This document shows positions 6,107 to 19,132 of a stretch of DNA of 64,000 bases, piece after piece; the first letter of the stretch is position 1; every line of letters begins with the position of its first letter. The stretch lies in IMG/VR virus record IMGVR_UViG_3300031555_000648, positions 1-64,000 of that record. One strand, written 5' to 3'. The position numbers and the translations under genes are program-made. The notes under the pieces were generated by a model. The model ran no database searches, was not told where the DNA came from, and worked only from the letters and a program-made list of their open reading frames with translations. This DNA is from a virus (Duplodnaviria; Caudoviricetes).

Positions 6107-6637
6107 TTAATCACACCACAGCACTATTCTATTTTCTGCTAAAGACTTCTTCACGTCTATAACATTCTGGTTACTACTTCCTCTCCACTTGAGTTGCAGG
6201 TCTCTAAGGTCTTTCTTGTACTCCCCATCTACAAGAACATCAACAAAGTTCATGACAATCTGCTTTCTCACATAAGGAAGTGTGCCCTCTTCATAATCTC
6301 TCATGATGGTCTCATAGGTGTACCCTGTGTACAACCAAATGGTCTTGTCTGGAAACTTCTCTTTAATCTCTACACAAAGGTTATGCACCTCTACAAGATT
6401 TGTGGCAAAGAAAGGGTCACCACCAGAGAATGTGATACCACTAATGTAATCTTTGCTCAATTCATTAAATAGTTCTTCTTTGTCTTCTTCTCTAAATGGA
6501 ATACCACTTCTCTTATCCCATGTCTGTGGGTTCTGGCACTCTGGACAATGGTGTGTACAACCACTCAAAAAGAGTGTTACTCTCAATCCATCACCATTGT
6601 TCTGGTCATCTTTCTTAATGTCATGATAATGCAACAT
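6107..6637 (-). CDS. nrdG: Anaerobic ribonucleotide reductase activating enzyme (radical SAM)
   Basis: NGDGLRVTLFLSGCTHHCPECQNPQTWD, FSGGDP and WRGSSNQ motifs. Confidence 0.95.
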   Translation of the reverse strand: MLHYHDIKKDDQNNGDGLRVTLFLSGCTHHCPECQNPQTWDKRSGIPFREEDKEELFNELSKDYISGITFSGGDPFFATNLVEVHNLCVEIKEKFPDKTIWLYTGYTYETIMRDYEEGTLPYVRKQIVMNFVDVLVDGEYKKDLRDLQLKWRGSSNQNVIDVKKSLAENRIVLWCD

Positions 6638-7087: not shown

Positions 7088-7771
7088 CTACATCATAAGG
7101 TCTTTTAATGTGAGGTGGTCAAGGTATTTCTTCAATTCACCTACTGCGAAATTATAATAGTAATGCAACATTGGCTCTGAAATATTGTCCGGCTTAATGT
7201 TTGCACCTAACAAACTCTTATGTCTCAAAGTCTTCAAGATATTCACATTGTAAGTGGTTGTAGTGTACTCCACTTCTTTCAAAGGTTCATCTGGATTAAA
7301 AGGTTTTACTTCTGGGTCAAGAACAGCAACCTTAAATACAGGTAACTCACTCACAGAATACCACTTGTCGGTCTTTAAGTGAATGTCCTCTAAATGGGTC
7401 TCGGAAAACAATCTGGACTCATCATGGTTCTTCATGTAAAGAGTGATTTTCTTCTGTCCGTCTTTCTCTCTGTAAAAGTAATCCATATCAATGTTATTCT
7501 CTAAAAGCAGGGTCATGATAGCAATACCACTAAAGTTACTTGACTGCACTGTCTGTGCTAAAATCTGGTGGGGCAATGGAAGCACCTGCACCGACATATC
7601 TCTGTAACTGTATCTCTTTAAATAACCTAATTTATATAATATATAATTAGATAAATATTTAATTCGTTCTCTAAGTGCCTTGCACCAGAGAACAGTAATC
7701 ATCTTCACCTGCTTCAATCTTCTAAATCGAATTGGTCTTGTCATGTTATGAAACTTTGCTTTCTCACTCAC
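7088..7771 (-). CDS. Hypothetical protein, 227 aa
   Basis: ORF track; GTG start with GAGGTG RBS. Confidence 0.7.
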   Translation of the reverse strand: MSEKAKFHNMTRPIRFRRLKQVKMITVLWCKALRERIKYLSNYILYKLGYLKRYSYRDMSVQVLPLPHQILAQTVQSSNFSGIAIMTLLLENNIDMDYFYREKDGQKKITLYMKNHDESRLFSETHLEDIHLKTDKWYSVSELPVFKVAVLDPEVKPFNPDEPLKEVEYTTTTYNVNILKTLRHKSLLGANIKPDNISEPMLHYYYNFAVGELKKYLDHLTLKDLMM

Positions 7772-7925
7772 AAGTGGTCACCTCTTTCTTAAGATTTACA
7801 TTGACATTTACATTAGCACTGCCACTTCTTTCTTTTGGCACTTTAATGTCACACCAATGTTTTGCACTTAAATTGTGGTTTGGGTCTTTCATAATCTCCG
7901 AAATTGATACTGTACAACTCTGCAT
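7764..7925 (-). CDS. Small hypothetical protein, 53 aa (MQSCTVSISEIMKDPNHNLSAKHW...)
   Basis: Translated by hand; GAGGTG RBS; own promoter. Confidence 0.65.
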   Translation of the reverse strand: MQSCTVSISEIMKDPNHNLSAKHWCDIKVPKERSGSANVNVNVNLKKEVTTCE

Positions 7926-7950
7926 GATATTCACCTCTCTAAAATAAAAT

Positions 7951-7996
7951 AATAGCTGACACTGTACATTTTAGCACACTGTCAGCTATTCATCAA
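7951..7996 (-). terminator. Terminator after dpdA-like gene overlapping promoter TTGATG-17-TAAAAT
   Basis: 11-bp inverted repeat AATAGCTGACA/TGTCAGCTATT followed by a T-rich tail. Confidence 0.75.
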
Positions 7997-8002
7997 ATCA
8001 CC

Positions 8003-10072
8003 TTAATTTACGACATTTCCATCATTTGGGTCATCAGTACTGTCTTTTCCCATGTCACCAAAAATCTTCTCAAGAATACCACCTCTTTGTGGATTAGACA
8101 CTTGAGTGGTCATTTCTTGTGTACCATCTGCTCTCATGATTTTAGTCTGTCGAATAACTTCTTGGCTTCCTGTCTCATACATTCTTTGTAACTGTGCCAT
8201 ATAACCCCATGTCTGGTTCATCATGTTAGTTACATTAGGGTCTGGGAGACCTCCCTCCATGATTTCAGTAATCATACCTCTTTGTAATCTTTGCATTGAG
8301 AAGTCAGCTATACCTTGCATTGCTTGAATAATATCACTCATATCTCTGGTGTTAAAACGCTCAAACATTTTATTGTAGGCACAAGCATAACCTGCTTTAT
8401 ACTCTGGACACTTCTGTGCATTGATACAGCTATCACAAGCCATCTTAGGGTACTTAGCACTATATAATCTCTTAGGTTTTAACACTTGCTTCTGACCTTT
8501 GATAAATCGTCCTTGTGCGTCTCTGACAGGTTCAATACCCTCTTCTCTAAATATCTCATCATCAAGGTCTGAAATCTCTGGTGCATAACTTCCATCAACA
8601 GGTGCAGGAAGATATTTGAGCATAGTGTTTTGTAAATCCATTTCAGTCACATCTGTTGTCTCATATTCTTCGTCTGTAATATAGTCATCACGTTCTTTCA
8701 CCATTCGGTCAAAATTTGTGCCAAGGACAAGAAGTTTATCATTCTTACCTAAAAGAACTTCGGTGTAGAAGTGTTTAAGGTCTGCAATTCTTTCCTCATC
8801 ATCAGCTACAATTCTGTTCACCCACATATCATGAAGACTTTTGATAAGTTCTGGCTTATAAATGTCCTCAATGATTGGTTGGTACTCATCATCTTCCCAA
8901 TTCATGAAAATGGTGAGGTCAATGATACAGTTAATAGCTGTCATCTTGTCCTCTGTGGAAATGTTAAAGGATTTTGCATAGTCCTCCCAATCTAGTTCAT
9001 TACTTGCATTTTCAATCCACAGAATACTTGGGTATTTAATGGAGTCAAGGTCTGTTTCACTTCTCTCAACACTATCTGGTCTTAGCCAATACATACGAGA
9101 TTTTAGCTTCTCCTGCACAAATTCTTCGGCTTCAATAAAAGCATGAACATTAACTCTTACCATTTCTTCTTTGTCTTCATCAAGGAGTTTTTGTTCATCA
9201 AATCCCTTTGCAACAACTTGTGGTAACATAGCACCTTTCCACTTATCTTTCTTGAGCCGAGACATTTTCTTTCCTGTCCAGAAATTGATTTCACCATACT
9301 GCAATCCAACAAGCCATGTAGTAGAGTCAACTGTGTAGAATGGTAACTTGGTTAAAAGTGCTGTCTGTGTCATTCCCATACCATGAACTAAACTCTTGTA
9401 TTTTTCTGCAACTTTTAGTTTTTCAAAACACCACTTTAATGTATCAGAACTACCTCCTGTAACTAAAGATACTCCAACATAGGGGTATCTCTGACAATAT
9501 TGTTCCCATGAAAGTTTTGGTGCTTCTTCATGGTATATGAAACACACAGGAATGCCTGTCTCTAACATAAAAGGTTCAAAGTATTTCTCATTCCAAATCT
9601 GGACTTGCTCACCACCAACAAGAATTTCAAGGTCAAGGTTAGCAATAGCAAATATTATATCACTATTTTTTCTAGCCCATTTAAGATAACCCTCAATGTG
9701 TTTCTCCCACTGCTCAATAGTGTAATCTTCATAGTTAATATCATTCATATATGTGTATGCACCAGAGTCAACAAAGAACTTTACTCCAATTTCTTTATAT
9801 CTTTGAGTACTAAGGTGCTTTCTCTGTACATAGTGGTAAGAAATAAGAAAATTTCTAATACCCATGTCATACAGAATATTAAAATTCTTTTCATCTTCTA
9901 CACCAGAAAACATCATACTAAAAGGTCTTTGTAAGTCCATAACTTCTCTAAGGTTAGAATACTTTGGCTTCTGTTGGTCTTCTTTGCTCTTATTTTGACT
10001 AAATAAGGACTTTTTCTTAATAGGTTGGGTGTTTGGCTGTTCTGCCACTTTATTCATCTTTTTCAGCTTCAT
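8003..10072 (-). CDS. DpdA-like / TGT-fold guanine transglycosylase with a long C-terminal extension carrying a 4-Cys motif
   Basis: FFVDSGAYT and VHGMG...PFYTVDSTTW motifs match the two TGT aspartate motifs; lies next to folE/queC/queD/queE; C-terminal CDSC-x5-C-x8-C. Confidence 0.75.
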   Translation of the reverse strand: MKLKKMNKVAEQPNTQPIKKKSLFSQNKSKEDQQKPKYSNLREVMDLQRPFSMMFSGVEDEKNFNILYDMGIRNFLISYHYVQRKHLSTQRYKEIGVKFFVDSGAYTYMNDINYEDYTIEQWEKHIEGYLKWARKNSDIIFAIANLDLEILVGGEQVQIWNEKYFEPFMLETGIPVCFIYHEEAPKLSWEQYCQRYPYVGVSLVTGGSSDTLKWCFEKLKVAEKYKSLVHGMGMTQTALLTKLPFYTVDSTTWLVGLQYGEINFWTGKKMSRLKKDKWKGAMLPQVVAKGFDEQKLLDEDKEEMVRVNVHAFIEAEEFVQEKLKSRMYWLRPDSVERSETDLDSIKYPSILWIENASNELDWEDYAKSFNISTEDKMTAINCIIDLTIFMNWEDDEYQPIIEDIYKPELIKSLHDMWVNRIVADDEERIADLKHFYTEVLLGKNDKLLVLGTNFDRMVKERDDYITDEEYETTDVTEMDLQNTMLKYLPAPVDGSYAPEISDLDDEIFREEGIEPVRDAQGRFIKGQKQVLKPKRLYSAKYPKMACDSCINAQKCPEYKAGYACAYNKMFERFNTRDMSDIIQAMQGIADFSMQRLQRGMITEIMEGGLPDPNVTNMMNQTWGYMAQLQRMYETGSQEVIRQTKIMRADGTQEMTTQVSNPQRGGILEKIFGDMGKDSTDDPNDGNVVN

Positions 10073-10083
10073 AGCAGGTCACC

Positions 10084-10647
10084 TCACATTCTCTCTTTGA
10101 ACTCTTTGTAAGAGTCTTCAAATCCCTTATTCACTCTTTTGTAATTTGTGTGAGTACTACAATTACTTTCAGCACCTCTACACTTTACACACTGATGTGT
10201 AGCTTCTACCTCTACAAAGATTGCGTGTGGTTCTAAAAGGTCATATAAGTACTCCCCAATCTCTTGTGTCAACTGCTCCTGCAACTGTGGCTTCTTGCTA
10301 AAATACTTCACTACTCTTGGCACTTTAGAAAGACCAATAACTTTATCACTAGGAACATATCCCACAGTAACTTTTCCAGAGAAAGGCAACCAATGGTGTT
10401 CACAGATAGAGTCAAACTCAATGTCTCTTATGATAACCATATCATTGTCATATTCATTTGGGAAAGTTTTCATGCGTGAATTTAATTCCTCAATGTTGTT
10501 ATTATTTCTGTTGGCAAAAAGTTCATTACAGTACATCTTTGCCACTCTAAGAGGTGTTCCTTTATTACTCTCTGTAATAGGAATACCCAAAATTTTCATA
10601 ATGGCTTCAATATGTTCTTTAATCTCTTCTACCTTGTTATCAATCAT
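10084..10647 (-). CDS. folE: GTP cyclohydrolase I
   Basis: SICEHHWLPF, GLSK, PQLQE and HQCVKCRG motifs; AAGGAGG RBS favours start at 10647. Confidence 0.95.
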   Translation of the reverse strand: MIDNKVEEIKEHIEAIMKILGIPITESNKGTPLRVAKMYCNELFANRNNNNIEELNSRMKTFPNEYDNDMVIIRDIEFDSICEHHWLPFSGKVTVGYVPSDKVIGLSKVPRVVKYFSKKPQLQEQLTQEIGEYLYDLLEPHAIFVEVEATHQCVKCRGAESNCSTHTNYKRVNKGFEDSYKEFKERM

Positions 10648-10681
10648 TGATAAATACCTCCTTGATTTCATTGTAATTAAG

Positions 10682-10732
10682 ATTATACCTCAAAAAAAGC
10701 ACTAGGTCAATCATGAGACTTTCCTAGTGCTT
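10682..10732 (-). terminator. Terminator hairpin (10697-10732) overlapping promoter TTGACC-17-TATAAT for folE-dpdA
   Basis: AAGCACTAGG/CCTAGTGCTT stem followed by T run. Confidence 0.75.
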
Positions 10733-10736
10733 AAGA

Positions 10737-11330
10737 TTAAAACTGCTCAAGGTGCTCCACACACTTGCACATTTCATCAAATTGTGGCTTCAAGTGTGGT
10801 GGTGTCCATGGTGAAGAAAAGCAGATAAAGATTAAATCGAACTCTCCTTGTACTTCATCAATATCTGTAGTTGTGGTATAAGGGAACTCTCCTGTCAATG
10901 CTTCTGTGTCACTGTCTTCTCTCATCACCCACTTAATATCTGCGTCTGGTTTAAGGTCTGCAAGGAAACGCAACCAATTACCACAGTCAAGGGTGTTACC
11001 ACCTGTGATGTACATATCATGGTGAAAGTCAATATTGATAATCTCTAAATCCTCATCTGGCTTCACATTGTCAAAGAACTGTGCAATCTCTCTATGGCTG
11101 TCAGCAATTAAAATCTTCCCTGCTTGTCTGCTCTTTAAGAAGTCACACATCTTGTCGTAGTTTGCAATCACACCTAAGTCTCTGATATTGTCGTGGAAGT
11201 CATATCTACTGTTCCAGATAAATTGAGTCAAGGCAGGTGAGAAGTTATCATGACCATCTGGGAAACACATTACTCTTGTGTTCATGTCAGTGTCAATAAA
11301 GTAGTCAAAGTCAATACTTAGTATTCTCAT
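10737..11330 (-). CDS. Arginase/ureohydrolase-fold metallohydrolase (UPF0489-like)
   Basis: LSIDFDYF, DSHRE, INIDFHHD, DCGNW and ICFSSPWTPP motifs. Confidence 0.75.
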   Translation of the reverse strand: MRILSIDFDYFIDTDMNTRVMCFPDGHDNFSPALTQFIWNSRYDFHDNIRDLGVIANYDKMCDFLKSRQAGKILIADSHREIAQFFDNVKPDEDLEIINIDFHHDMYITGGNTLDCGNWLRFLADLKPDADIKWVMREDSDTEALTGEFPYTTTTDIDEVQGEFDLIFICFSSPWTPPHLKPQFDEMCKCVEHLEQF

Positions 11331-11395
11331 TTTGTACCTCCAAATATTTAATTATGCAAGTATTATTATAGCACTTATATCTATAAAACACAAAA

Positions 11396-11423
11396 CACCA
11401 CAGATGACTAATCATCTGTGGTG
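11396..11423 (-). terminator. Rho-independent terminator after the 59-aa peptide gene
   Basis: Perfect 12-bp stem CACCACAGATGA/TCATCTGTGGTG, 4-nt loop, followed by TTTTGTGTTTT. Confidence 0.85.
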
Positions 11424-11452
11424 CTTGCTACTTTTTGGAGTTAAGGTTTCAA

Positions 11453-11632
11453 CTATCGTCCATTAGGTCTTACGTTGTTTACACGTCTCCCATTGATAGC
11501 TTCGATACGACCAAATACAGAAGTACCTGCTCTACGCATAACCTGACCCTCGGTCTCACCTGCTCTACGTCTAGCTCTAGGGTTCTGTCCTACAGTCTCA
11601 CGACTACCACCCTCAGCGTATGCTTTCATCAT
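11453..11632 (-). CDS. 59-aa Arg/Gly-rich peptide MMKAYAEGGSRETVGQNPRARRRAGETEGQVMRRAGTSVFGRIEAINGRRVNNVRPNGR
   Basis: Translated by hand; AAAGGAGG RBS 8 nt upstream; own promoter and terminator; missed by the 60-aa cutoff. Confidence 0.85.
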   Translation of the reverse strand: MMKAYAEGGSRETVGQNPRARRRAGETEGQVMRRAGTSVFGRIEAINGRRVNNVRPNGR

Positions 11633-11727
11633 GGCAATGTCCTCCTTTCATATTTTGCAAGAGTTCATAGAACACTAGGGAATATGAAAAAACCTATGTG
11701 TTAATCCAATTATCTTGCGTTAAGGAT

Positions 11728-11756
11728 AATATACCATACATTGTTATGGTTTTCAA
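11728..11756 (-). promoter_or_regulatory. sigmaA promoter TTGAAA-17-TATATT (extended -10) for the peptide gene; ACCATA-N6-TATGGT palindrome in the spacer
   Basis: Read directly from the minus strand. Confidence 0.7.
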
Positions 11757-11762
11757 GAGGTT

Positions 11763-13430
11763 TTAATATAAAAATGAACATTTTTTACATTCTTCACCAC
11801 ACATTTTAGAATTACAGGTGGTTGTAATTTCATTTTTACCCTTTTTGATAAGATATTCTAAACTATGGTCTCTTATGTTTCCAACAGACAGTTGGTCATA
11901 GTTTTCACTAGACACTTCGGACGCACAACCTAGTAAATAACCATCTGGTGTTACAGTAACTTGATTTGCATATCTGCTACAACAGTCCTCAAGGAAAAGG
12001 ACAAAATTATCTAACACATAGTAGTTAAAGGTAAAGTCCAATACATCTAACATGGAAGATATTTCATTATCTTCGCCTTCAAACAGAACACTTTCATATT
12101 CTATTCCGATATTGAATGAGAAATTCACATCAGTGAATTTCTTTGCAGTGTCTAACACCTGCTTGTAAACTTCAATCAAATTCTCTTTAGAGAGAAGAGG
12201 AAGAAATTCTGCATTACCTATACTTCTGATAGTCCTAATGTAGAAAGACTTTACACACGAATATCTCCAAACTAGATAAGATATAATACTTGACACCTTA
12301 TCATAATTGTTGCTGTGCAGGTCAATAAATATTTCAACATCAATTCCTAATTTATCACATACAGTAAGTGCTTTATCTGTTACTCCTTGAACACTTCTAA
12401 CTCCATTAGTCAGCATAACATCATCAACACTCAAATAAAACTTCTTTAACCCACATTCCTTTAACTCTTTTGCATACTTAGGAATGGTAATTCCATTAGT
12501 AACAATGTCAAAAGTGATAGAAAGATTATCTTCTTTTATCTTGTGTGCATACCACAGAATATCATCATTAAACATTGGCTCTTTCCCAGAGAAGTGAATG
12601 TTTGATACTCCTAACTTTTCAGCTTGGAGAATAACATTATATAATTCTTCTTTAGACAGTACAGGTGACTTAGTTTCTTCAAATCCATAGAAACAGTGTT
12701 TACACCTCAACTGACACAAATTGTTTATAAGAAGTCTTACTTCTTCAATTTTTTGATTAGCAAGAAGACTAATAAAAACAGGGTTATTATAGTCATAACC
12801 ACTCTTAACTAATGCTTTATGATGATGGTCAACTTTCAGAATACCCTCAATATATTCAAGGTCTTGACAGTCGGCACACTTACCACAAGGCTTTCCATTT
12901 ACAGGAGTATCACAACTAAAATAATCTCCAATTTCTACCCCACATTTGTTTGCAAAATAGATAAGGTTTTCTTTTTCAAAAGTGGAAAAAGGTCTTACCA
13001 CCTCAATGTTAGTGAGTGGAATAGAGAAGCTGTTTATACCATCAAAGAACTTGTCACTTGTATCTGTATATCCATGACTATTTAGAGTAGCAAGATACAC
13101 TTTGTCTGCCCCAATAGCTTCTGCATAGGAAAGTGCGTAAGACAAGAAGATTAAGTTCCTATACTCTAAATACTGCTTGTCATACACATTTGAGTCTTTT
13201 GTATAGAACTCTCTGGAAGTCCAATCAATTTTTGGCAGTGTAATTACTTTATGTGTAGCACCAACTTCTTGACTCACTTTATAAGCACACTCACACTGCT
13301 GTTGTTCATTATTTTCTCCATAACAGAAATGCAAAGAATAGATTTCATCTTCCGTTTGGGTCATGTGTAAATACTTCATAAGTACTACACTATCAAAACC
13401 ACCGCTGTTTAATACTACGATTTTTGACAT
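11763..13430 (-). CDS. queC: QueC-like domain fused to a radical SAM + SPASM/Twitch domain, 555 aa
   Basis: VLNSGGFDS, RNLIFLS and SC-x8-CGKCADC; then CQLRCKHC, FSGKEP, VTNG and CCS...VTPDGYLLGC...VGNI; AGGAGG RBS favours start at 13430 rather than 13616. Confidence 0.9.
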   Translation of the reverse strand: MSKIVVLNSGGFDSVVLMKYLHMTQTEDEIYSLHFCYGENNEQQQCECAYKVSQEVGATHKVITLPKIDWTSREFYTKDSNVYDKQYLEYRNLIFLSYALSYAEAIGADKVYLATLNSHGYTDTSDKFFDGINSFSIPLTNIEVVRPFSTFEKENLIYFANKCGVEIGDYFSCDTPVNGKPCGKCADCQDLEYIEGILKVDHHHKALVKSGYDYNNPVFISLLANQKIEEVRLLINNLCQLRCKHCFYGFEETKSPVLSKEELYNVILQAEKLGVSNIHFSGKEPMFNDDILWYAHKIKEDNLSITFDIVTNGITIPKYAKELKECGLKKFYLSVDDVMLTNGVRSVQGVTDKALTVCDKLGIDVEIFIDLHSNNYDKVSSIISYLVWRYSCVKSFYIRTIRSIGNAEFLPLLSKENLIEVYKQVLDTAKKFTDVNFSFNIGIEYESVLFEGEDNEISSMLDVLDFTFNYYVLDNFVLFLEDCCSRYANQVTVTPDGYLLGCASEVSSENYDQLSVGNIRDHSLEYLIKKGKNEITTTCNSKMCGEECKKCSFLY

Positions 13431-13500
13431 AATAAATCCTCCTATAAATAAATGGACAGGTGCTATTAGTATAACACCTGTCTCTATTGTATCATATTTC

Positions 13501-13827
13501 TTACAATCTGCCAATCGTTGCAGGGTTATCACGTCTTGGCTTAAATTGAGGTGTAACAGTAGTGTTAGGAACTGCCTGTTGGAAGCCTCTCTGTGCTGTA
13601 TTGCTAGGCACTTCATTCTTCGGTACTTTAGGTAACTTCATACCTGCGACTTTTGCAATGCTTTCAGCCTGCTTAATCTCTTCGGAAGCAATCTCTTTAG
13701 CACCAATGATTGCACCTTGGTATCTCTCTTTGTCTGCCTTAATCTGCTCTGCCTGTGCTAACACCCTAGCGTCGTCTCGCTGTCTCCACTTCTTTTCATC
13801 TTCTGACATTTTTGCATAATAACTCAT
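13501..13827 (-). CDS. Hypothetical protein, 108 aa (helical N-half, low-complexity tail)
   Basis: ORF track; GAGGT RBS. Confidence 0.75.
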   Translation of the reverse strand: MSYYAKMSEDEKKWRQRDDARVLAQAEQIKADKERYQGAIIGAKEIASEEIKQAESIAKVAGMKLPKVPKNEVPSNTAQRGFQQAVPNTTVTPQFKPRRDNPATIGRL

Positions 13828-13830
13828 GGT

Positions 13831-14472
13831 TTATACCTCTCTTTCTTTGTAAGAAAATTCTCCAAACAACTCATCTTCCCAGAGTTGTCTCTGTTTAACT
13901 GCTTCTTCAAGTGTCTTGAAGTCCTTTGTTCTTCTTATGTCTTTACACTTAATATAAGCATTAAAAGAACCATTGTGTCTAATACGAACACCTTTAGGAA
14001 GAGGTCTATCTTCATTAGGTTTCATATTACAAGAATTTTGAGACTTAGTACATTTCCTTAATTGTGCTTTTCTGTTATCATCTTTGTTATGAAATTTATG
14101 GTCTACCACATCTGAATTAGTTGCTCTCATCACTACTCTATGTAACTGTTTGTGTGGTCTACTAATACACCAATATCCATCTGCATTTTTAGTCCAAGTT
14201 CGATTAAAGGATTTCAATAATGGAATGTCCTCTACATCTACTAAAGCAAAAATGGAGTGGTCTTTGCTCCACATTTTTGCATGGTCTTCATCAAACACTT
14301 CAAATTCATTGAAGCAACCTTTTGAGCAACCACAGTGTGTCTTTCCGTTTAACTCATGAGAGGTTGCATAAAAATAATTCCCACATAATCTACAATAACA
14401 CTTATGTACTTTTGTGCCAAACTCTTTCTTTTCAATACTGACAACATCATAGTGTAAATATCTGTTTTGCAT
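13831..14472 (-). mobile_element. Free-standing HNH homing endonuclease with AP2 DNA-binding domain
   Basis: HRVVM...VVDHKFHNKDDNRKAQLR (HNH); LPKGV...AYI...FKTLEEAVKQR...LFGEF (AP2); RBS favours start at 14472. Confidence 0.9.
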
Positions 14473-14474
14473 AA

Positions 14475-14522
14475 CATTTACCTCCTTAACACTATTATAG
14501 CATAAAGAGGTAAATGACGCAA
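14475..14522 (-). promoter_or_regulatory. RBS-sequestering hairpin (14475-14484 / 14507-14516) with promoter TTGCGT-17-TATAAT whose -10 lies in the loop
   Basis: Perfect 10-bp CATTTACCTC/GAGGTAAATG. Confidence 0.75.
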
Positions 14523-14542
14523 GCAATTTTTACATTAGCAAA

Positions 14543-15181
14543 TTATCTCACACCGATTAGTTTATGGATTTGCAACTGAACCCTTACATTAAGTCTATCT
14601 TCAATAATCCAATCTACTAATTCACTCCCAATGACTGCTTTCTGGTTCTGGTCAAACATAGGACTGACTAAAATAGAAGCCTGTGTTGGGTATTTCTGTA
14701 ACACTTTCTTCATGTAGTCATAGTCTTCTCTGCTACCAATAACAAACTTCACCTCGTCATTGTTCTGTAACTTAAGCAGATTATCAAAGAGGTTCTTTTC
14801 AGAAACCCCACTGCTAGGACATTTAATGTCCATCACATACTTAAAACTGCGTCTGTACCCAAGGTCTTCAATAGGAACACACCCACTTGTCTCAATGGAC
14901 ACTTTATAACCCATGTGCATGAGTTCCCATGTAAGAGGAATGACTTCTTTGTGAATAAGTGGCTCACCACCTGTAATACACACATATTTCACACCCTTAA
15001 ACTTGAGTACTTTATTGACAATGTTCTCAACCGAAATTCTCTTCTTTTGGTCTGGCTTCTGTGGTTGGTCACAGTATGAACACCCTACAGGACACCCAAA
15101 AAGACGGACAAAGACACAGGGAAGTCCACTGTCTGAACTCTCTCCCTGTATGCTACAGAATATTTCATCATAGTACATCAT
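14543..15181 (-). CDS. queE: 7-carboxy-7-deazaguanine synthase (radical SAM)
   Basis: EIFCSIQGE...GLPCVFVRLFGCPVGCSYCD, ITGGEP and QLQIHK motifs; ATGA overlap favours start at 15181. Confidence 0.95.
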   Translation of the reverse strand: MMYYDEIFCSIQGESSDSGLPCVFVRLFGCPVGCSYCDQPQKPDQKKRISVENIVNKVLKFKGVKYVCITGGEPLIHKEVIPLTWELMHMGYKVSIETSGCVPIEDLGYRRSFKYVMDIKCPSSGVSEKNLFDNLLKLQNNDEVKFVIGSREDYDYMKKVLQKYPTQASILVSPMFDQNQKAVIGSELVDWIIEDRLNVRVQLQIHKLIGVR

Positions 15182-15345
15182 TTTCTTCGTCCACCTTTCT
15201 TTCTCAAACACTTGAGGTAATACTTTCGGTTGTATTTCTTGCTGTAACGATATTTTCCACCACCAAGGTGTTCAACATCATAATACTCACCTGTAATCTC
15301 ATAATCAAAATACTTGTAGAAAAGTGCTTTTAATTTCTTTAACAT
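15178..15345 (-). CDS. Small Lys/Tyr-rich protein, 55 aa (MLKKLKALFYKYFDYEITGEYY...)
   Basis: Translated by hand; GGAGGTG RBS; stop overlaps the queE start. Confidence 0.7.
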   Translation of the reverse strand: MLKKLKALFYKYFDYEITGEYYDVEHLGGGKYRYSKKYNRKYYLKCLRKKGGRRK

Positions 15346-15356
15346 GGTAACACCTC

Positions 15357-15824
15357 CTAAGTGGCAGGTTTCATAACAGGTTGCATAACAGGTTGGTCTG
15401 CATACTTAAGAAGTCTTTCTAAAGTACTTACTCTGTCAAGAAGACTGTCCATGACAGGGTTAAACTCTGCATAGCTTGTAGATGTCTCCCATAACTTGCA
15501 GGACACTAAGTACTTGTCCTTAGGTAATTTAGAGATAATATCTACTCCAATCTGCTTCACCATGATTTCTGCTGTTGGATTAGGGAAGTAGTCATTAAGA
15601 AAAGCATGGTCATACCTATCCACTGCTACTTCATTCACGATTTTCTTGAGGTCTTTGAAGTCTAAAATCATGCCACACTTAGGGTCAGAAGTGCTTGTCT
15701 CAATACTACCACCTACAGTCACTTCTAATTTGTAAGAATGACCATGGAGATTGTGACAAGCACCATCATAGTGTGGCAGATTATGACACGCTTCAAAACC
15801 AAATACTTTTGTTACTGTAATCAT
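15357..15824 (-). CDS. queD: 6-carboxy-5,6,7,8-tetrahydropterin synthase
   Basis: FEACHNLP...CHNLHGHSY, LDFKDLK, DHAFLN, PTAE and LWETSTS motifs. Confidence 0.95.
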   Translation of the reverse strand: MITVTKVFGFEACHNLPHYDGACHNLHGHSYKLEVTVGGSIETSTSDPKCGMILDFKDLKKIVNEVAVDRYDHAFLNDYFPNPTAEIMVKQIGVDIISKLPKDKYLVSCKLWETSTSYAEFNPVMDSLLDRVSTLERLLKYADQPVMQPVMKPAT

Positions 15825-15838
15825 AATCTGCTACCTCC

Positions 15839-16117
15839 TTATTGGACTACAATTCTTGCGACCATTACTGTACGCTTCTCACCTTTAATATCTACTTCAT
15901 CATATCCCGGCTTGATAGTTAAATCAAGACCTCTTGAAGCAAAGATACTTCTGGCTGTTGCTACTGCCTTATACATCTGGTTTACACTGCTTGCTCCGAT
16001 TGCACGAAGTTCAATGTTTCTCTCACCATCATCATAGGCTTTCACAATGCTACCTGCTGTTTCTCTGGTTGGTGAACTACCACTAACCATTAACTGCTTT
16101 ACACTTTCGTTGCTCAT
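15839..16117 (-). CDS. spoVS: Stage V sporulation protein S homolog
   Basis: Aligns by eye with SpoVS: VSGSS...AGSI...IELRAIGASSVNQMYKAVATAR...GLDL..KPGY..VDIKGEKRT. Confidence 0.9.
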   Translation of the reverse strand: MSNESVKQLMVSGSSPTRETAGSIVKAYDDGERNIELRAIGASSVNQMYKAVATARSIFASRGLDLTIKPGYDEVDIKGEKRTVMVARIVVQ

Positions 16118-16144
16118 GATACTGCTACCTCTCTTTCACGATTT

Positions 16145-18319
16145 TTACATTGATTTTCTTTCTGCGATTTCTGCCATCTTAGCTGAATTGAGACGAGTAT
16201 CACCTTTCACTCTGGAATAACTCAAGTAACCATTCATTCTGTCAATCTTAGTTAAATTAGTGCTTCCACACTTAGGGCAAACGTCCATTTCTAACTCTTC
16301 ATATCCACAGTCATCACAATATGCGAGGGAAAGATTAACACCCTCATAGAACCCCATTTTCATGGCTCTTAACACAAGTGTCTTTACTGCTTCTCTGTTA
16401 TAGTTTAATGGGTATCTAACATACTGTATTTTACCACCATTTGCTAAATCCCAAAATCTCTTCTCTTTGTCTTGCTTCTCAATCGGTGACATATCCTCTG
16501 TCACATGACAGTGGAAACTGTTACTTACATAAGGTCTGTCAGAAACGTGTTCGATAGTACCAAACTCTTTTCTGAACTGCTCGATTTGGAGACCACAGAG
16601 ATTTTCAGCAGGAGTTCCATAGATAGCATACAAATGACCATCTTCTTTTTTGAACTCACTAATCTTGTTGTTTATATATTGTAACACCTCTAACGCAAAT
16701 TGTCCATCTTCTCTTATGGACTTTTTGTTATAAAGTTCTTGGAGTTCATTCAAAGCAGTGAAACCAAAAGAAGCTGTGGCACTCTTTAAGAGTGGTTTAA
16801 TCTTCTCATTAGGCTTTAAATGACCACCATAGAAACCTCCCTCACAGTACATGACAGGATTGATACTTGCTTTCATTTCACCTAAATAATCATAGGTTCG
16901 GCAATGAATTTGACGTATCATTTCAAGGTAGTAATCTAAGACCTCATAGAAGTCTCTGTTCTCTCTTCTGGCTTTTGCTAAAATCATAGGCAGGTGTAAA
17001 GACACAGCACCTATATTAAATCGTCCTACAAATACAGGAACGTCATTCTCATCAGCAGGTTCAAAACCTCCACGCTCAAAGTAAGGTGATAAGAACGCAC
17101 GACAACCCATAGGACTGATAACTTTCTTATACTTCTTGTACATACTTGCTACATAACCATCACCTGTTAAAGACAAGTAATCTGGGTACATAGTCTTACA
17201 GCTACAGTCAATTCCTGCTTCAAACACATCATGAAGAGGTTTACCCTCACCATGCAAGTCTTCATCATACAGGAACACTAATTTAGGGAATAACACAGGC
17301 TTCTTATTACCTTTCTTACCTTGACCTGCTTTATGCACTTCAAGGAATGTAAGTGAAGCCATCTTTTCAAACACTTTTGTTCCAAGTCCGAAAGTCATGG
17401 TGATAAAAGGATAATCACCTCTGGAAGACCCTACAGTGTTGAGTTTATACTCAATACCTTGGAAACCTTGCTCATAGTCTCTCTTGACTTTCTTCATAGC
17501 TTTTCGGTCAGCTAAAAGGTCAATGATAGGCTTGAACAGTCCTTTAATGAATGTAATGTGCAACTCTTGAAGAAGCTCCATAGCGTCTTCTTGATACTCC
17601 TGCACATATCTGTCATAACTCTTCTGTGCGTAAGGTGCTAATACTTTATCAACCTCTGGCACAGTGAAACCTCCATACTGCTGTGAAGCACTTGACAGAA
17701 TAATGTCACCCATAACGTCAAATGCAGTATCAAGGCTGTTAGGTTCATTATACCAGATGTTACCCATTTCAAATCCACCACTCATAATTGTGGACATATC
17801 ACATAAGCAACAATTCATAGTGTCCAATCTGGCACTCTGGTCATGAACATAGATGTAACCCTCTTTACAGGCTTGCAACTCATCTTTGGTCATAAAGAAC
17901 TTCCTGTAGAGTCTCTTATTTAATTCATTAAACACTAAACACCTCTTAGTGGCTACAAGAGCACTGTCTGTGTTACTGTTCTCTTTATCACCGATAAATC
18001 GAATACTTTGAGACGCTTCAAACACTTTGTCCATCATGTGTACAAACTCTTGCTTGTAGTTTCTGTAGTCTCTGTAACTCTTTGCAACCTTTGGGTCAAA
18101 CTCTTCAAGAGCACCCTCTACTAAATTGTGCATGGTCTGAATACTTACTTTCTCTTCTCCGATTTCAGCAAGTTTCTGTTCTACAAAAGACACCACGTTG
18201 TTCTTATCATCTTCTGTGAGTTCAACCATCATTCTCTTTGCTGACTTACTAATGGCTGTCTTAATTTTCTCTGGATTGTAAGGGTCAAGAGTTCCATCTT
18301 TCTTAACGATTATATACAT
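16145..18319 (-). CDS. nrdD: Class III anaerobic ribonucleoside-triphosphate reductase with ATP cone
   Basis: IVKKDG ATP cone, PMGCR, YGTPAENLC, YVSNSFH, CPKCGS and RMNGYL motifs. Confidence 0.97.
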   Translation of the reverse strand: MYIIVKKDGTLDPYNPEKIKTAISKSAKRMMVELTEDDKNNVVSFVEQKLAEIGEEKVSIQTMHNLVEGALEEFDPKVAKSYRDYRNYKQEFVHMMDKVFEASQSIRFIGDKENSNTDSALVATKRCLVFNELNKRLYRKFFMTKDELQACKEGYIYVHDQSARLDTMNCCLCDMSTIMSGGFEMGNIWYNEPNSLDTAFDVMGDIILSSASQQYGGFTVPEVDKVLAPYAQKSYDRYVQEYQEDAMELLQELHITFIKGLFKPIIDLLADRKAMKKVKRDYEQGFQGIEYKLNTVGSSRGDYPFITMTFGLGTKVFEKMASLTFLEVHKAGQGKKGNKKPVLFPKLVFLYDEDLHGEGKPLHDVFEAGIDCSCKTMYPDYLSLTGDGYVASMYKKYKKVISPMGCRAFLSPYFERGGFEPADENDVPVFVGRFNIGAVSLHLPMILAKARRENRDFYEVLDYYLEMIRQIHCRTYDYLGEMKASINPVMYCEGGFYGGHLKPNEKIKPLLKSATASFGFTALNELQELYNKKSIREDGQFALEVLQYINNKISEFKKEDGHLYAIYGTPAENLCGLQIEQFRKEFGTIEHVSDRPYVSNSFHCHVTEDMSPIEKQDKEKRFWDLANGGKIQYVRYPLNYNREAVKTLVLRAMKMGFYEGVNLSLAYCDDCGYEELEMDVCPKCGSTNLTKIDRMNGYLSYSRVKGDTRLNSAKMAEIAERKSM

Positions 18320-18683
18320 TCTCTACTTTCCTCCTTTGGTTTATAACTCTACACACTAGGTTCTTAGAAGATACATAACCATAATATCTACTGTCATAGC
18401 TGTGTTCTGGATTATCACCTAAACAGAAAAAGAACCGCTTTCCGTCTCTCTTCTCAATATGGTCAATCCTTTTAATCACTATTCGATTTTCTGTTGGACT
18501 TCGATAGATGATAACATCACCTTTTTTCAGCTTGGATTTGCGGTAGATTTTTGAACCAAAGATAATCTCTTCATCAAGATATGTTGGGTACATACTGTCA
18601 CCACACACTTGAATTACAGGAAATAAGTGATACACTAGCAACCCCACAATAACTAACACAATAATAATCTTCAATAACATCAT
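18303..18683 (-). CDS. Signal peptidase I (S26)
   Basis: N-terminal TM segment; GDSMYPT (Ser), IVIKRI (Lys), GDN...SYDSRYYG. Confidence 0.9.
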   Translation of the reverse strand: MMLLKIIIVLVIVGLLVYHLFPVIQVCGDSMYPTYLDEEIIFGSKIYRKSKLKKGDVIIYRSPTENRIVIKRIDHIEKRDGKRFFFCLGDNPEHSYDSRYYGYVSSKNLVCRVINQRRKVENVYNR

Positions 18684-19132
18684 TTTTTAAATACCCTCTT
18701 TCCTACGATTTTGTCTTTTTCTACAAGGCTAAAGAAGTCTTCAAGAGACAAACACACATAGTCCTTTGAAGAATTATGTTGGTGGAAGATAACCACAGGT
18801 GTTCTGTCTTCTGGACAATCTTCTTCGGCTTGAGCAATCCACTTAGGCATAGACCACTGCTTCTGATTTTTGCACTCAATATGTAAGAGTAACATTTGCT
18901 TGGTATCTACTATGGTAATGTCACCTCTAAAGTCATCTGCTTTCTCTGACTTCTTGGCAAAACCACCAGATTGAGGTGTTCTCTTAAGTTCTACTCCATA
19001 TCTGGCTTGGAACTTTTTAGCAATGTCTCTCTCATACTGACCACCTTTTCTTTTAGCGTTCTTACCCTGTCTGACAAGTTTTTCTTTTTGGTTTTTCTTC
19101 TCTTCACCTGTTGTAGTTGCTTTCAGTTTCAT
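18680..19132 (-). CDS. Hjc-like Holliday junction resolvase (PD-(D/E)xK)
   Basis: KGGQYER, RTPQSGG, GDI and IECK motifs. Confidence 0.8.
   Translation of the reverse strand: MKLKATTTGEEKKNQKEKLVRQGKNAKRKGGQYERDIAKKFQARYGVELKRTPQSGGFAKKSEKADDFRGDITIVDTKQMLLLHIECKNQKQWSMPKWIAQAEEDCPEDRTPVVIFHQHNSSKDYVCLSLEDFFSLVEKDKIVGKRVFKK

Follow-up and report, generated by a model that had tools for sequence, protein, structure and literature searches.

In a 64,000-nucleotide window (positions 1 to 64,000, one strand) of the Caudoviricetes virus record IMGVR_UViG_3300031555_000648 from IMG/VR, we analysed a gene that joins a QueC-like domain to a radical S-adenosylmethionine (rSAM) domain with a Twitch-like tail. 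The fusion is real: the gene specifies an enzyme of two parts within a 7-deazaguanine module of the type carried by phage BCD7, and lies in a virus genome of 84,457 bp (98% complete) whose module genes are all on the minus strand. Across related phages, the presence of the rSAM part co-varies with a single residue of a small basic peptide encoded next to QueC, and we tentatively propose that this peptide, or a conjugate of it with a deazaguanine, is the substrate of the rSAM half.

A QueC-radical SAM fusion shared by uncultured phages

An earlier note on this DNA, made from the sequence alone, had placed the gene at 11763-13430. This interval was exact: the open reading frame list gives 11763..13616 (minus strand) from the first ATG, but when the DNA is read directly the start is the ATG at 13430, which has AGGAGG 7 nt ahead of it and yields a protein of 555 aa. 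The note's further proposal, that QueC and radical SAM share one frame, was borne out by Pfam and by relatives. QueC matches residues 3-189 (E 5.5e-28, 98.4 bits against a PF06508 cut-off of 22) and Radical_SAM (PF04055) residues 236-338 (E 1.6e-16, 61.4 bits against 29.5); SPASM, at residues 484-551 (E 7e-4, 20.3 bits), stays below its 21.5-bit cut-off. Among 5.8 billion proteins searched, there are at least 119 full-length relatives with identities of 38-83%; their length is almost always 544-574 aa, and many lie on phage contigs of 70-92 kb; the few that are named carry the label '7-cyano-7-deazaguanine synthase'. When the rSAM half was searched, the roughly 100 best representatives at 50% identity were mostly fused (500-585 aa), with stand-alone proteins of 318-412 aa also among them, and the fusion holds stably in no fewer than 80 clusters at 50% identity. 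It marks a large group of uncultured BCD7-like phages of about 70-92 kb, many of them from human-gut metagenomes; no full-length match was found among the isolated phages of the INPHARED collection.

The earlier note had allowed that the fusion might be an artefact absent from relatives. The chance that a sequencing error or an annotation has joined two adjacent genes is negligible: its sole cue is that split forms are found in other genomes, and against it an uninterrupted fused frame of 544-585 aa recurs in more than 100 independent assemblies (Logan, ENA, JGI, NCBI), the linker residues F219, E230 and R232 are conserved in relatives, and the AlphaFold 2 (AF2) model of the whole protein is confident (predicted local distance difference test, pLDDT, 94.2; predicted template modelling score, pTM, 0.90). 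This pTM also predicts a fixed packing of the two domains. Because fused relatives are widespread and the same rSAM occurs as a gene of its own within the same module, an assembly artefact is, for practical purposes, excluded.

The radical SAM part is an optional component of the module

In several related loci (numbered here with an L) the rSAM is a separate gene of 310-370 aa between FolE and DpdA (L013, L023-L026, L055). The order is FolE, rSAM, flavodoxin-like flavin mononucleotide (FMN) reductase and DpdA-like in L023-L026, and QueC, peptide, FolE, rSAM and DpdA in L013 and L055. Throughout, the rSAM is confined to the 7-carboxy-7-deazaguanine (CDG)/DpdA module, in three different architectures, and the presence of fused and split forms in the same module, a Rosetta-stone pattern, ties it to the module independently of the fusion.

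Other phages manage without it. No rSAM homologue was found in four genomes, each at least 91% complete, that carry a stand-alone QueC of about 210 aa, in a search that does detect the fused and split forms in control genomes (29-37% identity). On the QueC-domain tree and on the DpdA tree (a quick tree, not a careful maximum-likelihood one), lineages without the rSAM are scattered among fused ones, in at least five instances, and the DpdA proteins of close rSAM-plus and rSAM-less sisters are about 65% identical. The rSAM part is an optional add-on to the module, mostly fused, sometimes separate and absent in sister phages, and by the trees it has been lost or gained at least five times. There is also a third QueC architecture, in which QueC is followed by a C-terminal domain of about 250 aa without a Pfam or PHROG match (L014:4021-5361, L015:6995-8338, L072-L084); these loci lack the rSAM and have two tandem peptides that start MKVFAT.

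BCD7 itself (NC_019515; PMC6884629) is the nearest cultured phage; of the isolated phages, it gives the best match to QueC (35%) as well as to DpdA (42.5%). It shares with the window the order S26 peptidase, SpoVS, QueD, QueE, QueC, small basic peptide(s), FolE and oversized DpdA, but has a stand-alone QueC of 215 aa and no second radical-SAM enzyme. We found no report of its DNA base in the searchable literature.

As a separate observation, L052 and L081 are two copies of the module on one contig (BNJT01002654.1, 137 kb), in which QueE, QueC, FolE and DpdA are each spread over several frames; the broken frames look like long-read indel errors or a concatemer rather than real pseudogenes.

Presence of the radical SAM part co-varies with a peptide residue

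Where a related locus extends far enough past QueC, an equivalent of the window's basic peptide gene, preceded by a strong ribosome-binding site (RBS), nearly always follows QueC directly. These peptides are 40-90 aa long, basic and rich in Gly, Arg and Asn, and accompany fused, split and rSAM-less QueC, BCD7 included. When aligned, they are conserved only in an N-terminal motif, hydrophobic-x-[VA]-[FYH]-A-X, and in a basic C-terminal end. Residue X is Glu in the window; the BCD7 peptides share the motif (..NVFAT.. and ..NVYAT..), but with Thr in this position.

We scanned 64 further metagenome loci, scoring residue X blind to the rSAM state and counting distinct lineages. In the 16 fused lineages X is Glu in 11, Gln in 4 and Gly in 1, and in the four split lineages it is Gln, Gln, Asp and Val. 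The nine rSAM-less lineages have only Gly, Thr, Ser, Val or Ile, never Glu or Gln. An acidic or amide residue (Glu, Gln or Asp) is therefore found in 18/20 rSAM-bearing and 0/9 rSAM-less lineages (Fisher's exact p = 5.5e-6), and the tree shows at least five independent switches, in separate places. Two loci were left out as ambiguous: L056, with X = Glu on a 1.2-kb contig, and L047, whose contig ends inside FolE. Because the rSAM co-varies with a residue of the peptide, a peptide or peptide-conjugate substrate is favoured over a free base. In addition, [FYH]-A-[EQ], present in 15/16 fused lineages, matches the aromatic-X-X motif of triceptide precursors, as a pattern match only.

The [VA]-x-A of the peptide motif also resembles a signal-peptidase-I cleavage site; a link between the S26 peptidase encoded just upstream of the module and the peptide is speculative.

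The QueC half

The QueC half of the window protein carries SGGFDS (9-14), YGENNE (37-42), LEYRN (88-92), GYTDTS (120-125) and the zinc cysteines C173, C182, C185 and C188, with no Arg after its CxxC. Over the 119 full-length relatives, on which the residue statistics for both halves and the tail are based, the SGGxDS pyrophosphate loop (S9-G-G-F-D-S14) is kept in 100%, the four cysteines of the C(x)8CxxCxxC zinc site are invariant, and Y37 (97%), R91, N92, Y121 and D123 (98-100%) and K153 are conserved at 97-100%. The protein thereby has equivalents of the SGGxDS, C(x)8CxxCxxC, Y35, R99-N100, Y131-x-D and K165 of canonical QueC (PF06508 cluster 1; PMC13329287), with QueD and QueE likewise nearby. 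By its sequence, the QueC half keeps all of the residues for binding ATP and a deazaguanine and for adenylating the CDG carboxylate.

The family differs from canonical QueC in four positions and in the radical-SAM extension of 350 aa. The His of YxQxHxxE is replaced by Asn (79%), Ser (14%) or Thr (5%) and is never present (Y-G-E-N-N in the window); the VP of VPxRN has become LE (E89 in 99%) with R91-N92 retained; the Cys of YPDC is Thr in 93% with Y121 and D123 retained; and position 174, which follows the first zinc Cys and is equivalent to Tyr189, has no Tyr in any relative but Asp (87%) or Asn (13%). In E. coli QueC, Y189A abolishes the synthesis of 7-cyano-7-deazaguanine (preQ0), and Y35, R99 and Y131 are essential (Libby et al. 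2026, PMC13329287). The fusion does not reach the cut-off of the QueC equivalog model TIGR00364 (81.1 against 150.3 bits), and in VIA-align comparisons the solved structure nearest to its QueC half is Cap9 (9nto_B; Z 22.6, root-mean-square deviation 2.0 over 177 of 181 residues), ahead of two QueC structures (3bl5 and a second one) with Z 20.2 and 20.0. Judged by these alignments, it is a compact QueC/Cap9-like domain that lacks three positions of the canonical preQ0-synthase signature.

In Cap9, of type IV CBASS, and QatC, a QueC-like enzyme joins CDG through an amide bond to the N-terminus of a protein (Wassarman et al. 2025; PMC13279940). Like Cap9, the QueC half is compact (about 190 aa), has an acidic residue after its first zinc Cys (CE in Cap9) and has no His in YxQ, and in both systems a TGT-fold (tRNA-guanine transglycosylase) partner and a protein with a conserved N-terminus are encoded alongside. 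Of the Cap9 signature, LxSGGxDS, Y/FxQ(x)5E, YxDCxxxF, RN, PF(x)4K and CE(x)6CxxCxxCxD (PMC13329287), the family consensus fits with LNSGGFDS, YGQxNxxQE, RN, PF(x)4K and C-D(x)7CxxCxxC; the window protein has E39 and Q45 swapped, and Thr for Cys. The systems differ in that the window has no CD-NTase (none among the scanned neighbours of the fusion), QatA, QatB or QatD, and the phage itself encodes the complete CDG pathway. A basic peptide of about 60 aa is the putative acceptor here; to judge from its second residue, its Met is probably not removable by methionine aminopeptidase.

The earlier note had listed YGENNE, YLEYRN, GYTDTS and the missing Arg as deviations from QueC. All are present, although YGENNE is restricted to the closest relatives and the family consensus is YGQxN. 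Its reading of them as a sign of new chemistry in the fusion was not supported: the loss of the His, LEYRN and the missing Tyr also occur in the stand-alone QueC of sister phages with complete genomes and no rSAM, and the divergence is therefore a trait of the phage lineage and not of the fusion. No QueC position cleanly separated fused from free forms among the sequences compared. Thr for Cys in YPDC was considered as a marker of the fusion and rejected, since L047, L054 and L059 have it without an rSAM, and the Cys is retained in the fused L001 group.

The radical SAM half and its C-terminal domain

The three cysteines of CX3CX2C (C239, C243 and C246) do not vary among the relatives, nor do H279, G282, E284 and P285, and many invariant polar residues line the rSAM half. 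The C-terminal cysteines of the window protein are at positions 483, 484, 502, 539, 544, 548 and 551. C484 and C502 are conserved in 100% of the relatives and the C551 column in 82%, the others in less than 70%. The full seven-Cys SPASM motif, CX9-15GX4C...CX2CX5CX3C...C, does not apply to the family, the four distal cysteines of the window protein not being shared with its relatives; CX9-15GX4C is conserved, however, and the model has a beta-hairpin at 490-500, as in a Twitch domain. The presence of only three conserved cysteines indicates a Twitch-like tail rather than a full SPASM domain. The C-terminal domain is predicted to be of Twitch type, with a single auxiliary [4Fe-4S] cluster on the three conserved cysteines, a cluster that would probably be site-differentiated. 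What the earlier note called a Cys-rich SPASM/Twitch tail is thus retained as Twitch-like with one auxiliary cluster, but not as a full seven-Cys SPASM domain.

As for the relationships of this half, the NCBIfam families that best match the rSAM core (MoaA, PqqE, Tes and NirJ) all score well short of their cut-offs. The MoaA models TIGR02668 (73.2 bits, cut-off 325) and NF001199 (70.4 bits, cut-off 231) match over the N-terminal 110 residues only; MoaA is at E 1e-20 in NCBIfam and is also the best match in PDB (1tv7, 3.3e-9). RaSEA is not among the 25 listed NCBIfam matches to the fusion. Differences from MoaA beyond these low scores are that no ribose-bearing substrate is evident and that there are no MoaC or molybdopterin genes. 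By structure (VIA-align Z), the neighbours are SuiB (24.0), SkfB (23.7), PqqE (23.0), anSME (22.2) and ChlB (21.7), followed at about 20.5 by BlsE, CteB, MoaA, DesII and viperin. The alignments reach the C-terminus for SkfB, BtrN and MoaA, and extend to residue 555 for SuiB, SkfB, PqqE and anSME. In the model, then, peptide-modifying SPASM/Twitch enzymes appear to be the nearest structures to the rSAM half, by a small margin.

Possible roles of the fusion

Neither CDG nor ADG (7-amido-7-deazaguanine) nor preQ0 contains an sp3 C-H from which a 5'-deoxyadenosyl radical could take the hydrogen, so that a classical radical reaction of this kind needs an appended moiety. A Glu or Gln side chain offers such a C-H and, together with the covariation, this makes Glu/Gln the best candidate site. 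We suggest, giving it a little less than an even chance, that the rSAM half acts on the basic peptide or on a deazaguanine-peptide conjugate. In the module, CDG is the product of FolE, QueD and QueE, with a TGT-fold DpdA coming after them. In the downstream peptide, the Glu/Gln next after the [VA]-[FYH]-A motif would lose a hydrogen to the rSAM half, and this side chain would then couple to an aromatic acceptor. The acceptor could be the Phe, Tyr or His two residues upstream, giving a triceptide-like aromatic-X-X product; or it could be the deazaguanine ring, first amide-linked to the peptide by the QueC-like half, as Cap9 and QatC do on protein N-termini. The product, which could be the whole peptide or a piece released from it, would serve the DNA-modification module of the phage. 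There is precedent for such couplings: PqqE links a carbon of Glu to the ring of Tyr, and PqqE and SuiB both bond an aromatic ring with a side-chain carbon. Triceptide synthases form the same kind of bond within short motifs (PMC11499958). Enzymes of this peptide-crosslinking type (PqqE, SuiB, and triceptide synthases such as ChlB and HaaB; PMC11499958) are the top structural neighbours of the rSAM half, and [FYH]-A-[EQ] has the aromatic-X-X form.

Several observations weigh against a peptide substrate. Two lineages break the covariation, L032 (fused, X = Gly), which is a sister of a large rSAM-less Gly clade, and L013 (split, X = Val), and the peptide family is present in every rSAM-less relative, BCD7 included, from which it follows that the peptide does something for which no rSAM is required. 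Compared with the peptide-crosslinking enzymes, the fusion has no leader-binding domain of the RiPP recognition element (RRE) type, almost no leader (only 1-9 residues ahead of the motif), a single motif per peptide and one predicted auxiliary cluster, where known triceptide synthases have full SPASM domains; its rSAM is fused to a nucleobase-activating domain, and the crosslink is hypothetical. The structural margins over small-molecule enzymes are small (Z 20.3-20.6 for BlsE, MoaA, DesII and viperin), the best sequence-family matches of the rSAM core are to MoaA, a purine-nucleotide enzyme, and the auxiliary cluster of MoaA is also held by three Cys, with its free iron binding the guanine ring. 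Finally, the active site of QueC shows no consistent residue difference between the fused and the stand-alone proteins.

Another route, which we regard as possible if somewhat unlikely, is tailoring of the free base, in line with the earlier note's proposal of an undescribed 7-deazaguanine derivative: the QueC half would make ADG, preQ0 or another 7-carboxamide from CDG, the rSAM would convert this free base into an uncatalogued 7-deazaguanine, with the open-site auxiliary cluster holding the guanine-like ring as MoaA holds GTP, and DpdA would insert the result into phage DNA. The fusion of the rSAM to QueC and its confinement to the CDG/DpdA module in three architectures speak for a step on the base, as do the MoaA matches, the three conserved auxiliary cysteines, which fit a site-differentiated cluster, and the invariant polar residues lining the rSAM half. 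However, the MoaA scores lie far under the cut-offs (73 against 325 bits), the free bases lack an abstractable sp3 C-H, and the Glu/Gln covariation in the neighbouring peptide is left unexplained. Phage DpdAs do accept several bases (PMC10516641), but DpdA shows no obvious switch between close rSAM-plus and rSAM-less sisters, in which it is about 65% identical. A plausible reductant for the reaction, the flavodoxin-like FMN reductase, accompanies the rSAM in L020, L023 and L028. It was considered as an obligatory partner of the rSAM and rejected, being absent from the window genome and present in some relatives only.

The QueC half might instead give its ordinary product, preQ0 or ADG for DpdA, while the rSAM matures the peptide for an unrelated purpose (a DNA-condensing or anti-defence peptide, for example) and the fusion brings co-expression only. 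That the same QueC residues occur in fused and stand-alone forms, that sister phages dispense with the rSAM and that the covariation points at the peptide and not at the base would all fit. We nevertheless think it unlikely, because a fusion that is stable over at least 80 clusters at 50% identity and a split gene that is always inside the module suggest one shared pathway, because the pTM of 0.90 predicts fixed inter-domain packing, and because the peptide is tied to QueC and DpdA in every lineage. A further reading, which we consider quite improbable, is that the module makes a nucleobase-peptide conjugate. Here the QueC-like half would amide-link CDG to the peptide, possibly after the S26 peptidase has clipped off the short [VA]-x-A leader, and the rSAM half would crosslink the Glu/Gln side chain to the deazaguanine ring. 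DpdA would then swap the peptidyl-deazaguanine into phage DNA, as a covalent peptide hypermodification, or else the peptide would be a scaffold that releases a new tricyclic base.

Relation to known 7-deazaguanine pathways

The module belongs to the known phage DpdA plus preQ0 class, as FolE, QueD, QueE, QueC and DpdA are all encoded together in the window, which is how such clusters are defined. Eight 7-deazaguanine DNA bases have been catalogued, with the tailoring enzymes QueF, ArcS, Gat-QueC, DpdL, DpdM and DpdN, and none of the catalogued pathways uses a second radical-SAM enzyme. DpdL was followed up as a lead for a QueC-like tailoring enzyme and rejected; it is a QueD paralogue and unrelated. 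In concept the fusion resembles ArcS with RaSEA, where an rSAM step takes place on a 7-deazaguanine amine adduct, and Gat-QueC, where QueC has an extra domain. QueF is absent from the whole 98%-complete genome, in which the QueF model matches only the T-fold of FolE (22 bits, below the cut-off), and the ArcS core domain DUF5591 (PF17884) has no match there, with control genomes positive, so that the absence of QueF and ArcS noted earlier for the window extends to all 84,457 bp. No glutamine amidotransferase domain was found in scans of the module.

A search of the literature, including the 2023 catalogue of eight bases and a 2026 survey of the QueC family, found no paper that describes a QueC-rSAM architecture, in agreement with the earlier note, which knew of none; nor did we find in the searchable literature a description of a second radical-SAM enzyme tied to a conserved peptide in a deazaguanine module. 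The note had also reckoned with the architecture being common and already characterised: it is common in related phages, but we found no characterisation of it. Two fields may meet in this module, that of protein deazaguanylation by QueC-like enzymes in anti-phage defence and that of peptide crosslinking by radical-SAM enzymes. A new DNA base and a deazaguanine-linked or crosslinked peptide would, if true, each be new biochemistry, with a likely role in the evasion of restriction.

Genomic context of the module

The features of the window are listed in Table 1.

Table 1. Features of the fusion gene, its domains and the surrounding module in the window.
Feature	Position	Strand	Support or remarks
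QueC-radical SAM-Twitch fusion gene, 555 aa + stop	11763..13430	-	RBS and ATG, Pfam, relatives, AF2 model
QueC-like PP-loop/Zn domain, aa 1-200	12831..13430	-	Pfam, alignment to QueC 2pg3 and 3bl5, VIA-align, residue statistics
Radical SAM core, aa 228-440	12111..12749	-	C239-x3-C243-x2-C246, SGKEP SAM-binding motif, Pfam E 1.6e-16
Twitch-like auxiliary-cluster domain, aa 470-555	11766..12023	-	C484-x12-G497-x4-C502 and one conserved Cys near the end
Basic peptide gene, 59 aa, pI 11.9, 12 Arg, N-terminus MMKAYAE	11453..11632	-	AAAGGAGG RBS
Promoter-like TTGAAA-17-TATATT ahead of the peptide gene	11728..11756	-	consensus match only; number of sites not above shuffles
Terminator-like hairpin, 15 pairs, and T-run after the peptide gene	11393..11426	-	
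DpdA-like oversized TGT-fold protein, 689 aa	8003..10072	-	phrog_887 E 4.7e-73
FolE, GTP cyclohydrolase I	10084..10671	-	Pfam E 2.2e-49
Arginase-like protein, 197 aa	10737..11330	-	ESM Atlas features
Conserved accessory protein, 108 aa, upstream of QueC	13501..13827	-	homologues in the same position
HNH endonuclease	13831-14526	-	phrog_99 E 7e-24
QueE, 7-carboxy-7-deazaguanine synthase	14543..15211	-	TIGR04349 E 5.4e-63; phrog_2076 E 9e-39
QueD, 6-carboxytetrahydropterin (CPH4) synthase	15357..15824	-	PTPS Pfam E 1.7e-28; TIGR03367 89.8 bits (cut-off 89.25)
SpoVS	15839-16117	-	
Small S26/S24-type peptidase	18303..18683	-	Pfam Peptidase_S26 E 6.7e-18
PDDEXK_15 nuclease	18680-19132	-	
NrdG and NrdD (anaerobic ribonucleotide reductase and activase)	6107-6637 and 16145-18319	-	

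The DpdA-like protein is 42.5% identical to BCD7 gp021, and its BCD7 homologue has been listed as DpdA (Hutinet et al. 2019, PMC6884629). Its AF2 model has a mean pLDDT of 72.6, with most of the N-terminal half above 80, and Foldseek relates this model to the TGT fold (E ~5e-5, TMt ~0.5); no match to PDB sequences was obtained with the single sequence or with a 15-sequence profile, and the placement with TGT proteins is by PHROG and predicted fold only.

Pfam, PHROG and NCBIfam give no match for the 197-aa protein encoded between the basic peptide gene and FolE, and its ESM Atlas features match viral 'Arginase family protein' clusters (score 0.95). Homologues accompany the fusion in L018 and L049 and are found without rSAM in L047 (where the contig ends in FolE); occurring both with and without rSAM, the protein was rejected as a third partner in a 'triad'. 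The slot between FolE and DpdA, empty in the window, varies among relatives: it holds a second rSAM besides the fusion in L039 (4464-5333), a PAPS-reductase-family PP-loop protein in L029 (9028-9972) and the flavodoxin-like FMN reductase in L020 (10044-10583), L023 (4163-4750) and L028 (8726-9292).

Directly ahead of the fusion-gene RBS there is a promoter-like TTGGCA-17-TACAAT and, after it, a 12-bp hairpin (window 13455-13514, minus strand); this stretch may be a regulatory leader. Rfam searches of 7500-16500 (E up to 1) found no preQ1 riboswitch or other RNA in this leader or in the 120-nt leader of the peptide gene. Terminator-like sites number 3, against 0.7 expected.

Homologues of the 108-aa protein occupy the same position in L007-L012, L047, L049, L054 and L064. 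The HNH endonuclease gene, wedged between the 108-aa gene and QueE, has homologues placed elsewhere in L006, L011 and L017, and because of these differing places it looks like a mobile homing endonuclease. In BCD7 as in all relatives, S26 peptidase, SpoVS and PDDEXK_15 form a conserved block shortly upstream of QueD, and the S26 peptidase gene adjoins SpoVS and QueD in L018-L020, L028-L030 and BCD7. With NrdG/NrdD counted in, the phage encodes three radical-SAM enzymes. SpoVS and the anaerobic ribonucleotide reductase suggest an anaerobic Firmicute host, for this phage and for the fusion-bearing group in general.

A family of small open reading frames was also seen between the peptide and FolE in L003 (9077-9304), L004 (9105-9275), L020 (9016-9255), L029 (8172-8423) and L030 (8112-8240). 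Its members have C-termini like IDPxxTPxxxY[IV]KK and N[PK]AT[IV] motifs, and the 108-aa protein of the window, which ends RRDNPATIGRL, may be related to them.

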